A DNA stretch of 29,023 nt from Patescibacteria group bacterium. GTDB taxonomy: Bacteria > Patescibacteriota > Microgenomatia > UBA12405. The position numbers were made by a program, and so were the translations under genes. The DNA is taken from positions 1-29,023 of the forward strand of contig JAHIEZ010000038.1 of NCBI GenBank assembly GCA_018901355.1. Direction: 5' to 3'. This document shows positions 3,164 to 24,196 of this stretch, piece after piece. Below the pieces are notes generated by a model that did no database searches, was not told the DNA's origin, and saw only the letters and a program-made list of their open reading frames with translations. How positions within the stretch are numbered: position 1 is the stretch's first letter; every line of letters begins with the position of its first letter.

Positions 3164-5023
3164 ATGCACTTCACCTGCCGCTCTTTTATTGGAAAACCCG
3201 AGCCGGGTCATTGGTCCCAATATTGGGAAAACGAACCCGACGACCCCTTTATTGTCGGCCGTCGTGGCCACCTTTTTGGTCTTCTTAGCCTCAAATTTGA
3301 CGATGACTCTCAATCTGCCAGTGATTTTGGTCACCAAATTATCAGAGAAATTAGTCAATCCTATTTTTCTTCTTCAGAACTTGGTCCGGCCGATCAGCTT
3401 CATGAGGCTATAAATTCGGTTACCGCCAACCTTGATCCCCAAGTTTCCTTTTTGAGTATTATCACCGCTGTTGTTTATCAGCAAACACTTTATTTATTTA
3501 TTTATGGTCAAGGCCACGTCATTCTTCGTCGTCTCAATCAAATTGCTCCTCTCCTAACCGGCAAAGACAACCAATCGGTTTCTCTTTCCGGTCCTCTCCG
3601 GGCGGAAGATGATGTTTTCTTTTGTACCTCGGCTTATTTTGATCAAACAAGCTGGAAAAAAATAAAAGAAATTTTATCCTTTCCTTCCATTAAAGAGATA
3701 GAAGAATCTGCCCTTTCTTCTCTCTATTCGTTGCCTGATCAAATTGCAGTTTCCGCCGCTCTTGTTCAACCTCATTTTGATACTCCTCCGGAAGAACCGG
3801 AAGCACCGCCTCCCATTGCCACTCCTCCGCCTGTTGAAGACTCCTCTCCTCCCCGTCCTTCTTTTTCTCTGCCTTCTTTTTTCAAAAAAGCTTTAAGCAA
3901 AAAACCGGAACTTTACGTTTCCCATCATCAAGTCGGACAATTAAACAAACGCAAAAAACTCAATATTGCCATTGCACTTGTTTTACTTTTGGCGCTGGCT
4001 TTTAGTTCTTATTTTGGTTTTCGCAAAACCGAAGCCGCCAAAGCGGAAGCCAAATTTAGTCAACTATCTCAAAAAATCACCGACTCTCTCAAAAATGCCC
4101 GTGATGTTAAAAACATAAATCTGGAAAGCTCCGTCGAATTTGCCGCTCAAGCAGACTCTCTCTATCAGGAAATTGCTCTTCTCAATCTTCATCAGGAGCA
4201 ATTAGATTCTTTTCACCAGCAAATTCAGGATATTTTAGCCCAAACCGGTTCATCCCAAGGCCTAAGTCTTGATTTTTTTTACGACACCTCTTCTATTAGT
4301 TCTAAGCCCAAATACAGTCAAATGATTTTTTCCGACGATAGTCTCTATCTTTTAGATTCTTCCATTGGTCGGGTTGATTCTCTTGGTTTGGAAAATAAAA
4401 ACACCAAAAATATTTCCATCAGTGACGATATCAAAAACGCCCTCACTCTCGTCAAATCAGACAACAATTATTATATTCTTACCGCCACCGACGTCTCTCT
4501 TTTGGCTAAAACCAAAACCGAAGCAAAAATTAAATTTTCCGACATTGGTTCAAACATCAAACCTCTGGATCTTCAGTCTTGGAATAGCGCTCTTTACTTG
4601 CTTACCGACAGTTCTATTTATAAATACACCCTTTCCGGTTCTTCTTTCTCTTCTCCTTCAGCTTGGCTTCAAGACGAAACTGTTTTGCCTCAAAACCCCA
4701 GTTCTTTTGCTATCAATGGCAAAATTTGGCTTCTCTCTGCCACTGGTAAGCTCCAGCCTTATATCCGTGGTCTGGCCGATAATTACCAACTTTCTCAAAC
4801 ACAAGATATTAGCCAGGCCAAAAATCTTCTCACCGGCCTTGACGACCAACGTCTTTTCTTTACCGCTTCCGACAATTTAGTCTATGTTTACGACAAAGAC
4901 GGTCAATTTATTTCCAAATACAATTTAGGTGACCAAAAAATTCAAGACATTGCTTTTGATGAAAAAGCTTCTGTTCTTTATCTTCTTTGTCAGGACCAAA
5001 AAATTTACTATCTTTCCTTATAG
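3164..5023 (+). CDS. Single-pass membrane protein: degenerate PP2C-like N-domain, Pro-rich linker, TM, helical stalk, beta-propeller-like C-domain
   Basis: The N-domain follows the PP2C strand order ('GHLFGLLSL', 'LYLFIYGQGHVILRR', 'LRAEDDVFFCTS'). TM 'LNIAIALVLLLALAFSSYFGF'. The C-terminus has repeated short beta-blades ('LYLLDSS', 'YYILT', 'LYLLTDS', 'IWLLS', 'VYVYDKDG'). Confidence 0.75.
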   Translation: MHFTCRSFIGKPEPGHWSQYWENEPDDPFIVGRRGHLFGLLSLKFDDDSQSASDFGHQIIREISQSYFSSSELGPADQLHEAINSVTANLDPQVSFLSIITAVVYQQTLYLFIYGQGHVILRRLNQIAPLLTGKDNQSVSLSGPLRAEDDVFFCTSAYFDQTSWKKIKEILSFPSIKEIEESALSSLYSLPDQIAVSAALVQPHFDTPPEEPEAPPPIATPPPVEDSSPPRPSFSLPSFFKKALSKKPELYVSHHQVGQLNKRKKLNIAIALVLLLALAFSSYFGFRKTEAAKAEAKFSQLSQKITDSLKNARDVKNINLESSVEFAAQADSLYQEIALLNLHQEQLDSFHQQIQDILAQTGSSQGLSLDFFYDTSSISSKPKYSQMIFSDDSLYLLDSSIGRVDSLGLENKNTKNISISDDIKNALTLVKSDNNYYILTATDVSLLAKTKTEAKIKFSDIGSNIKPLDLQSWNSALYLLTDSSIYKYTLSGSSFSSPSAWLQDETVLPQNPSSFAINGKIWLLSATGKLQPYIRGLADNYQLSQTQDISQAKNLLTGLDDQRLFFTASDNLVYVYDKDGQFISKYNLGDQKIQDIAFDEKASVLYLLCQDQKIYYLSL

Positions 5024-5037
5024 GATATAATTGCCTC

Positions 5038-5448
5038 ATGAGGCATTTCAATCGTCAATCCCGTGACTATAAATTTATCGAAAAAGTCGAAGCCGGACTT
5101 GTTCTGACTGGTTCTGATGCCAAATCGCTTCGTGTTCAGCCGGTTCAATTTCAATCCGCTCAAGTCGAAATTCAAAACGGTCAACCGGTCATTATCGGCC
5201 TCAATATCCCTCTTTACAAATATTCACAGGGCCAAACTATCGACACCACTCGTAGCCGTAATCTCTTACTTTCTTCTTCTCAAATAAAAAAACTCCAATC
5301 TTACCGCAAACAAAAATACATGCTTATTCCGGTTACCATCTATTCTCAGGGAGTTTGGTTTAAGCTGGAAATCGGCATCGGCCGCAAACTAAAAAAATAC
5401 GAAAAAAGAGAAATACTAAAAAAAAGAGAATTTAGAAAATCATTCTAA
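5038..5448 (+). CDS. smpB: SsrA-binding protein (short form, 136 aa)
   Basis: 'RDY..IEKVEAGLVLTGSDAKSLR', 'RSRNLLL', 'LIPVTIY', 'FKLEIGIGRKLKKYEKRE'; adjacent to the tmRNA gene. Start placed at ATG5038, not 4987, because TATAAT (5026-5031) lies 6 nt upstream. Confidence 0.9.
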   Translation: MRHFNRQSRDYKFIEKVEAGLVLTGSDAKSLRVQPVQFQSAQVEIQNGQPVIIGLNIPLYKYSQGQTIDTTRSRNLLLSSSQIKKLQSYRKQKYMLIPVTIYSQGVWFKLEIGIGRKLKKYEKREILKKREFRKSF

Positions 5449-5682
5449 AATTTTGTGTTTTTTCAAAAAAGCTCTTCCAGATCCTGATTTAAAATATTTT
5501 TCTAAATTAAAAGCAGAATACTTATTTCTTATTGAAATAACAGCGATCAAACTTACGGGTAATCTACTTTTTGTTGCCCCAACCAGTCCTTTTTTGTGTT
5601 TCTCAAACCTTTCTTTTAGGTTATTAGTACAACCAAGATAGGTTTTTTTATCCTTACAACTCAAAAAATAAACATGGTACAC
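5440..5682 (-). CDS. Small stand-alone GIY-YIG nuclease family protein
   Basis: 'YHVYFL...KTYLGCTNNLKERFEKHKKG...TKSRLPV.L...EKYFKSGSGRAFL'. Overlaps the smpB 3' end by 9 nt, convergently. Confidence 0.9.
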   Translation of the reverse strand: MYHVYFLSCKDKKTYLGCTNNLKERFEKHKKGLVGATKSRLPVSLIAVISIRNKYSAFNLEKYFKSGSGRAFLKKHKILE

Positions 5683-5708
5683 CTACCAATTTATCATATT
5701 TTGTGGAG

Positions 5709-5784
5709 GACTTTGTCTCGCCGTAGCCGAGACGACTAGCTGAAGCGAAGTCCGACTTCGCTAAAGCTACGTCGAGGCGAAGGA
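5709..5784. repeat. Nested GC-rich palindromic element at the tmRNA 3' end
   Basis: Hairpin GTCTCG(5715-20)/CGAGAC(5728-33); hairpin AGCGAAGT(5744-51)/ACTTCGCT(5755-62), extended by TAGC/GCTA and CGAC/GTCG. GCGAAG and GTAGC sub-units recur. Flanked by CTCC copies on the minus strand (5788-85 and 5708-05). Confidence 0.8.
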
Positions 5785-6217
5785 GGAGATGCCCCGCAAT
5801 GAACGGGGGTCCGAAATGGAATTTAAAAAACGTCTACAAGCTTATTTTGCTTATTTTTAATCCTCAAAATATAAACAAAAAAATTCTTTTGAGGCTCTGT
5901 TTGTTTTTCCCTCTCGGGAATCTTATTTATCGTTAAAAACAGAAATTAACGACACAGCATTCCAGTTTAAATTACACCCGACCAATCTCCTCTGGAATGG
6001 GGGACTGATCCGATGGCTAATTTAGCAAACAGCCAAGGCTGGAGTTTGATTTCCAAACAAGGACCGTTCAAGTTCACCGAATTTATCGGCAACTTTAGCT
6101 AAATTAACACCAAAAGTTTTAGCTTTGGCATTTTCTTTTTGAAATCTGTTTTACGACTGTTTTCAAAGTCGGCTTGCGGTTTTTCAAAGTTCTCTTCCGT
6201 CGATGCAATACATCTCC
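5784..6217 (-). ncRNA. ssrA: tmRNA (one-piece, about 434 nt)
   Basis: 5' GGAGATG-TA-TTGCA-TCGAC pairs with 3' GAC-CCCCG-TTCATTG-CGGGG-CATCTCC. Helix GCAAGC/GCTTGT; PK1-like CGAC/GTCG plus TTTGAAA/TTTCAAA; tag ORF 6129-6022; TATAAT promoter upstream; next to smpB. Confidence 0.9.
6022..6129 (-). other. tmRNA tag reading frame AKAKTFGVNLAKVADKFGELERSLFGNQTPALAVC*
   Basis: GCC resume codon just after the PK1-like structure, open for 35 codons to TAA (6024-6022), hydrophobic C-terminus. The resume codon is inferred from position. Confidence 0.75.
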
Positions 6218-6337: not shown

Positions 6338-6592
6338 ATGCAAACACAAAACACTCAACTTCGGGTAACCTTACCGGTTCAACTTCAGGCTTATTTACAG
6401 ACCAAAGCCAGTAAATTTGGCCTAAGCCTATCCGCTTATGTCAAAAACTTAATTATCAATGACGTTCAAGACGTTGACTATCCTATTTTTCAAGCCTCCG
6501 ACGGGGTAGAAAAATCTTATAAAAAAGCCATCAAAGACAGATCTAAAGCTGTCGAAGTCAACGACATTGACCAATATTTTAGTAACCTGTGA
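6338..6592 (+). CDS. Type II antitoxin, ribbon-helix-helix (RelB-like)
   Basis: Beta strand 'QLRVTLP', two helices 'LQAYLQTKASKFGLSLSAYVKNLI', acidic C-terminus 'EVNDIDQYFSNL'; GTGA overlap with the toxin gene. Confidence 0.75.
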   Translation: MQTQNTQLRVTLPVQLQAYLQTKASKFGLSLSAYVKNLIINDVQDVDYPIFQASDGVEKSYKKAIKDRSKAVEVNDIDQYFSNL

Positions 6593-6858
6593 AAAAGATT
6601 ACCTTAAGTCCTTTGTTCCGGAAACAACTAAAACAGTTACGACAAAAAGATATTAAGTTATTTGGAAAAATTCAAAAACAGCTTGTTTCATTTCAGTCTA
6701 ACCCTCGGCACCCTTCCCTACGTTTACACAAATTAAAAGGCGAATTGCAGGACGTTTGGAGTTTGTCGGTTACCATGAATTTCCGATTGCTTTTTATAGA
6801 AGATACGGAGTACTATTTTTTTGATATGGGTAACCACGATCAAATATATAAAAAATAA
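6589..6858 (+). CDS. Type II toxin, RelE/YafQ-family mRNA interferase
   Basis: 'FRKQLK', 'HPSLRLHKLKGEL.DVWSLSV..NFRLLF', 'DMGNHDQIY'. GTG start. Confidence 0.85.
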   Translation: MKKITLSPLFRKQLKQLRQKDIKLFGKIQKQLVSFQSNPRHPSLRLHKLKGELQDVWSLSVTMNFRLLFIEDTEYYFFDMGNHDQIYKK

Positions 6859-23983: not shown

Positions 23984-24123
23984 CCGGAACGGCCATTTAA
24001 GTTTTAAGTTGTTCTTTAAAATTTTTGCGTTTTTGTCCGAGCCGACTTTTTACGAGGACGAAGACCGAGCGTGAAGATGGCGATGCGAGCGCCCTCCCCG
24101 ATAACCACAATTATTCAAAACTG

Positions 24124-24196
24124 TGGGCATACCTGGAGTCGAACCAGGGACATCTGACTTATAAGATCAGCGCTCTAACCACTGAGCTATATGCCC
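24124..24196 (-). tRNA. tRNA-Ile, anticodon UAU
   Basis: GGGCATA|TA|GCTC|AGTGGTTA|GAGC|G|CTGAT|CTTATAA|GTCAG|ATGTC|CCTGG|TTCGACT|CCAGG|TATGCCC|A; CCA not encoded. Confidence 0.93.

Follow-up and report, generated by a model that had tools for sequence, protein, structure and literature searches.

The locus described here raises the question of which amino acid is loaded onto a transfer-messenger RNA (tmRNA) that lacks both the G3·U70 wobble pair and the A73 discriminator of alanine identity. G3·U70 is described as "completely conserved" in tmRNA (Himeno et al., 2014; PMC3985003). The gene lies in a window of 29,023 nucleotides (i.e., the whole stretch of DNA that was analyzed), which comes from a groundwater Shapirobacteria genome.

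The gene (ssrA) was identified on the minus strand at positions 5781–6217 as a one-piece tmRNA of 437 nt by its match to Rfam family RF00023 (87.0 bits against a gathering score of 47, E 9.9e-33), which extends over the full length of the model (positions 1–374). This is the sole RF00023 match above cut-off in the 738-kb, 80%-complete genome. The minus-strand RNA starts with 5' GGAGAUG and its 3' end reads GGAC-CCCCG-UUCAUUG-CGGGG-CAUCUCC-U-CCU. From the sequence and the Rfam alignment, the 5' acceptor strand GGAGAUG was placed at 6211–6217, with A3 at 6215 (T on the plus strand), and the 3' acceptor strand CAUCUCC at 5785–5791, with U70 at 5787. All seven pairs of the resulting helix are Watson-Crick, pair 3:70 is A-U and no G·U pair was found at any position of the acceptor stem, which confirms what the original prediction had read from the letters. 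Its reading of base 73 as U holds as well: the discriminator U73 at 5784 is followed by C74, C75 and U (5783–5781), A76 is not encoded, and U73 stands in register with the A73 and CCA-like trailers of relatives that carry G3. The gene therefore combines the RF00023 score, the 7-bp acceptor stem, the 5-bp T-stem, the tag frame and the smpB gene expected of a tmRNA with the absence of the G3·U70 wobble pair and of the A73 discriminator.

The T arm (5792–5808, minus strand) consists of the stem CCCCG/CGGGG, with strands at 5808–5804 and 5796–5792, and the loop UUCAUUG at 5803–5797, with U at position 58. The original prediction had listed this loop without A58 among the anomalies; the sequence is as reported, but it has no link to the identity change. 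T-loops without A58 are class-wide and are also found in G3-type tmRNAs, and the absence of A58 is therefore not part of the change. More specifically, C occupies position 58 in 16 of the 21 G3 tmRNAs of the order. Across the class, the usual U54/A58 pair is missing from the loops: any of the four bases can stand at position 54, and U, C or A at position 58.

An assembly error hiding a G at position 3, which had been raised as an alternative, is ruled out. DNA contigs from two studies span positions 6215, 5787 and 5784 and show no alternative letter, and A3 is found in 43 genomes. A register shift or a relocated G·U pair is likewise excluded by the seven Watson-Crick pairs together with a conserved 5' boundary: the heptamer GGAGAUG starts 43 related tmRNAs, and the sequence upstream of it is unrelated among them. 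No second, canonical tmRNA copy was found in the window's genome or in the single-contig genome G027. In two RNA libraries, contigs cover portions of the tmRNA body (in one case at 99% identity), which is no proof of transcription; they stop short of the tmRNA ends, including position 3, and are silent on mature termini and CCA addition.

The gene is followed by a structured 3' trailer (5700–5780, minus strand) of nested hairpins ending in GUCCUCC, with a minimum free energy of −35 kcal/mol. Homologous trailers were found in G003, G004, G007, G009, G027 and G028, with a T-run after several of them, so that at least six other Shapirobacteria genera have these hairpins downstream of ssrA. The trailer contains a 6-nt direct repeat, TCCTCC; removing one copy yields U73-CCA, as in G001, and not A73. 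The possibility that the trailer is an insertion hiding an A73 was rejected on both grounds. Beyond the trailer, on the same strand, lies a stand-alone GIY-YIG nuclease of 80 aa (5440–5682; Pfam, 45 bits). On the other side, upstream of ssrA, two small overlapping ORFs occupy 6338–6858 on the plus strand. The second (89 aa) has a weak likeness to YafQ/RelE-type toxins (Pfam E 1.5e-5, below cut-off), and the two may form a toxin-antitoxin pair.

Judging from its sequence, the window tmRNA is apparently functional. Its tag frame (6022–6129, minus strand) begins at the resume codon GCC, comprises 35 codons encoding AKAKTFGVNLAKVADKFGELERSLFGNQTPALAVC and ends in the hydrophobic C-terminus ALAVC before a TAA stop. 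Tag frames are intact in all 54 translated tmRNAs of the order, with the canonical hydrophobic ends ALA, AFA, AVC or AAC. Ten tmRNAs were added later, and all eight that could be translated also have intact frames; the remaining two, one without a resume site and one cut by a contig end, are outside this count. All five T-stem pairs stay standard throughout the 43 A3 tmRNAs despite many two-sided changes (e.g., pair 52:62 is GC in 27, CG in 8, GU in 7 and AU in 1), and the acceptor helix is perfectly conserved in the same genomes. The gene for the protein partner, smpB, adjoins ssrA (4987–5448, plus strand; Pfam PF01668, 102 bits) and is present in 56 of 61 related genomes. The argument that the tag ORF and smpB speak against simple decay is thus borne out, and the option that the tmRNA is non-functional is disfavored. 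The tags of Shapirobacteria are also long, 28–39 residues (14 in one genome) versus mostly 10–21 (up to 33) in sister families, and share the N-terminal motif AK(K/N)(S/T)FGVDLTKVA. Both the length and the motif exceed the needs of a C-terminal degron, which suggests an extra function, for example adaptor binding.

Next, we looked at positions 3 and 73 across the class, where both ends could be read for 74 tmRNAs. A3-U70 was found in 43 of them, i.e., the window tmRNA and those of 42 other genomes, and G3·U70 in the other 31. The A3-U70 tmRNAs are distributed over family f1 (Candidatus Shapirobacteria, the family of the window; 38), f3 (2), f7 (1) and f25 (2). The discriminator follows position 3 without exception: all 31 G3 tmRNAs have A73, while the A3 tmRNAs have G73 (23) or U73 (20) and never A or C. 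Three more f1 genes, cut by contig ends, also have non-A discriminators. In addition, 401 genomes of the class were scanned for the 3' end of the tRNA-like domain; the CAUCUCC strand was found in 180, and among the matches listed (150 of 181) a non-A73 base is confined to f1 and f25. The loss of the alanine identity pair is thus clade-wide, and it affects an RNA on which selection otherwise still acts.

To place these changes in time, trees were built from AlaRS and from concatenated AlaRS and SerRS sequences (LG+G4, 36 rows). On the AlaRS tree, f1, f3 and f7 form one clade (support 99–100) apart from the G3 families of the order. On both the AlaRS and the concatenated trees, G3-bearing lineages separate this clade from f25, a family of another order. 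An AU test rejected the monophyly of all A3 bearers (delta lnL 173, p 0.00036); it used the two genes under LG+G4, its group was defined once the tree had been inspected, and some of the SerRS rows show signs of transfer. By this test, the A3 change arose in f1+f3+f7 and separately in f25. One genome, G032, carries G3 and A73 and is nested deep in the f1+f3+f7 clade as the sister of G009 (A3, U73); this placement has an SH-aLRT value of 96 in the order-level AlaRS tree and of 99 in the concatenated one. U73 or G73 is found in six further members of the genus, and A3 in all four of them with a readable 5' end. The G032 tmRNA is 74.5% identical to that of G009 over its full length, whereas G3-type tmRNAs matched it only over the last ~70 nt. 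Given this nesting and this likeness, G032 is a double reversion and not the recipient of a transferred gene. Positions 3 and 73 are therefore coupled, having changed together at two gains and one reversal. Since G73 is found in the basal families f3 and f7 and in the independent f25, A3 with G73 is probably ancestral among the A3 states and thus probably the first state of the change; within f1, the discriminator was exchanged between G and U at least four times.

The alanine system shows no matching change. All 25 tRNA-Ala genes read (2 from the window's genome and 23 from relatives) keep G3·U70 and A73, which disposes of the alternative that the tRNA-Ala of the clade also carries A3-U70. 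AlaRS is single-copy and no duplication specific to the A3 clade was found; G021 carries a second, divergent AlaRS (C9:20223–22076), and the enzyme of G000 lies at L048:1489–3192. Across the whole order, AlaRS is a short form of ~570–600 aa without the C-Ala domain. Its G·U-reading residues were located by alignment to the structure of the E. coli fragment. The equivalent of N303 (E. coli numbering) is conserved everywhere except in f3, where it is Pro (PSPKEAGY), and A3 and G3 lineages alike have Q or E at the position of D400. No AlaRS column holds a residue common to both A3 lineages and rare elsewhere, and of the 149 columns that the G3 lineages conserve, none has been lost in both A3 lineages (controls reach 2).

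These results bear on the reading in which alanine is still attached, with AlaRS, perhaps helped by SmpB, recognizing features other than G3·U70 and A73. In every system tested, tmRNA is charged by AlaRS (PMC3985003), and the short form of the enzyme with its Q or E at the D400 equivalent also counts in favor of this reading. SmpB shows a signal as well: both A3 lineages have lost the conserved state in 3–4 of ~25 columns, among them the K of the RNA-binding motif RKLLL, and its Pfam scores are lower in both (90–127 bits versus 110–174 in G3 lineages, with overlapping ranges). This signal is weak, since controls reach three changed columns; same-residue convergence between the A3 lineages is limited to one column and the revertant G032 keeps an A3-type SmpB. 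The SmpB changes are suggestive and do not discriminate between explanations. Against continued alanylation, the AlaRS motif has identical states where the tmRNA keeps G3·U70, and an AlaRS that still needs G·U in tRNA-Ala is unlikely to accept an A-U tmRNA. Moreover, A73 was dropped together with G3 and both were regained in G032, which is unlike compensation within alanine identity and indeed its opposite. We infer that charging of A3 tmRNAs by AlaRS is no longer efficient and regard retained alanine as unlikely, though it is the strongest rival of the serine reading proposed below. The altered AlaRS proposed in the original prediction thus finds no support, and of its four options charging by another synthetase is the best that remains. 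Taking all candidates together, we find it somewhat more probable than not that the amino acid is not alanine.

Which synthetase could this be? The tRNA-like domain has no anticodon, and therefore only anticodon-independent synthetases are candidates. We compared the acceptor end of the tmRNA with those of the 26 tRNAs found in the window's genome, and tRNA-Ser alone shares its GGAG start. Three further tRNA genes were noted in passing: a tRNA-Ile with anticodon UAU (24123–24196, minus strand) adjoins two tRNA genes with CAU anticodons. The tRNA-Tyr of G000 (C104:1216–1288) starts with CCAGCGG and ends with CCGCUGG-A, so that its first pair is C1-G72; C1-G72 is the archaeal/eukaryotic type of tRNA-Tyr and G1-C72 the bacterial one.

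The match to tRNA-Ser extends over the top of the helix, G1-C72, G2-C71, A3-U70 and G4-C69 (GGAG/CUCC) being common to the tmRNA and the resident tRNA-Ser. Among the tRNA-Ser genes read, 33 of 34 have G1 G2 A3, 29 of 34 the GGAG start and all 34 G73. As G1, G2 and G4 are already present in the alanine-type stem, matching tRNA-Ser takes just one new base plus G73, which counts against the serine reading. G73 is present in 23 of the 43 A3 tmRNAs, including those of the basal f3 and f7 and of f25; the window tmRNA, like the other U73 bearers, differs here, and its U73 against the G73 of every tRNA-Ser read is a further point against serine. According to the review by Giegé and Eriani (PMC9976931), serine identity does not depend on the anticodon and is read from the shape of the long variable arm; bacterial tRNA-Ser have conserved G1-C72 and G2-C71 pairs, and G73 is a moderate serine determinant, with an effect in vivo that is absent in vitro when the transcripts are unmodified. 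G73 is also an antideterminant against LeuRS and TyrRS (PMC9976931), and a non-A discriminator argues against LeuRS. In tmRNA, the connector helix points away from the tRNA-like domain the way a class II variable arm does (Himeno et al., 2014; PMC3985003), so that the P2 helix has a comparable orientation, with no real long variable arm.

SerRS is present in the window's genome as a single copy, and no SerRS duplication specific to the A3 clade was found. Only two of 90 conserved SerRS columns are changed in both A3 lineages (0–1 in controls), which is a weakness of the serine reading: Q87 lies in the coiled-coil arm, and F311, a state that two G3-type genomes also have, follows motif 2. Elsewhere, G031 carries a second, divergent SerRS (C4:57801–59039), and the SerRS of G053 and G058 (family f2) are 63–65% identical to the Shapirobacteria enzyme versus ~51–54% for most f2 and 44% for one, and may have been transferred.

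From this evidence we tentatively propose, holding the idea to be a serious possibility rather than a probability, that the window encodes a functional tmRNA of a Candidatus Shapirobacteria bacterium with a switched identity, charged by SerRS. In this mechanism, the tRNA-like domain would have switched its aminoacylation identity from G3·U70 with A73 to A3-U70 with a non-A discriminator (G or U), and AlaRS, still demanding G3·U70 in tRNA-Ala, would have stopped charging it efficiently. SerRS would charge the tmRNA instead, ignoring the anticodon and reading the top of the acceptor as it reads that of the resident tRNA-Ser, with the long P2 helix standing in for the variable arm that it recognizes by shape. 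The non-A discriminator would keep LeuRS and TyrRS off the class-II-like molecule. Trans-translation would proceed as usual, and the first residue of the tag would be serine and not alanine. Serine charging would explain the A3 change, G73 as the first state, and why U73 was tolerated later and A73 avoided. Against this mechanism, a true variable arm is missing from tmRNA, and SmpB, when bound, might get in the way of the coiled-coil arm of SerRS.

The other explanations account for less of the pattern. U73 is the discriminator of tRNA-Thr, tRNA-Gly and tRNA-Cys in the window's genome, and with at least four flips between U and G within f1 one could envisage a third synthetase, neither AlaRS nor SerRS, that is of the ThrRS, GlyRS or CysRS type or differs between U73 and G73 lineages. 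These tRNAs have C2-G71 or other acceptor pairs unlike the G2-C71 of the tmRNA, and ThrRS and CysRS need the anticodon that tmRNA lacks. A histidine-type identity was rejected, as G is never present at position −1 nor C at position 73. A third synthetase is in our view rather improbable. An uncharged or decaying tmRNA, in a clade that is losing trans-translation, would fit the three f1 genomes (G010, G012 and G026, 84–96% complete) without a tmRNA and the five (84–91% complete) without smpB among 37 f1 relatives. The intact tags with their conserved N-terminal motif, the T-stem pairs held by compensatory changes, the perfectly conserved acceptor helix and the smpB retained beside ssrA all speak against it, and we consider decay very unlikely. 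Least probable of all is a post-transcriptional editing or modification of A3 that restores a pair readable by AlaRS: inosine at position 3 is without the 2-amino group that AlaRS reads in the minor groove, and editing leaves the coupled change at position 73 and the double reversion in G032 unexplained.

In most respects the tmRNA resembles the canonical one-piece tmRNA/SmpB system (RF00023; E. coli SsrA), being alike in architecture, 7-bp acceptor, T arm, pseudoknot-rich body, resume codon GCC, hydrophobic tag end and adjacent smpB. It differs in having A3-U70 for G3·U70, U or G for A73 and longer tags. A precedent for a change of amino acid is an E. coli tmRNA whose identity was moved by engineering to histidine (Nameki et al., 1999, cited in PMC3985003); a few changes at the acceptor end were made in it, and trans-translation still works. 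On this basis, alanine is stated to be no prerequisite for trans-translation (PMC3985003). The histidine tmRNA is a laboratory construct, whereas the present case is natural, clade-wide and convergent, with no G at −1 and no C73. Natural AlaRS substrates that lost or relocated G3·U70 are also known from metazoan mitochondrial tRNA-Ala, as cited in PMC9976931. According to that account, tRNA-Ala and AlaRS co-evolved in metazoan mitochondria, whereas here both are canonical and the tmRNA alone has changed.

In the papers searched, no natural and conserved tmRNA that lacks G3·U70 was found to be described, searches for tmRNA in CPR/Patescibacteria returned nothing, and the main text of the 2025 tmRNA database paper contains nothing on such tmRNAs. 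Alanine features are used as a filter by gene finders and curators; for example, a 2014 tmRNA/SmpB survey rejected candidates with poor AlaRS features. ARAGORN finds 4 of 54 tested tmRNAs of the order and misses the window gene. A3 is not the reason for this blindness, as changing A3 to G in silico brings no detection and 17 of the 21 G3-type tmRNAs of the order are missed too. Under strict filters, 21 of 61 also escaped the Rfam model, and tmRNAs of the order are probably under-annotated.

The clade is a natural, selected exception to the statement in reviews that every tmRNA has G3·U70. It makes the question of whether trans-translation needs alanine and AlaRS testable, with sister lineages bearing G3 and A73 and a natural double revertant as built-in controls. 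The convergent, coupled changes at positions 3 and 73 provide a rare opportunity to see the evolution of synthetase identity in an RNA for which it is indifferent what amino acid is attached. Shapirobacteria and their relatives, and independently f25, may have a serine-loaded tmRNA, a suggestion we advance with some reserve, which would be the first natural one not charged with alanine. In this reading, the amino acid on tmRNA is functionally neutral, so that synthetase identity could drift, switch convergently and even revert.
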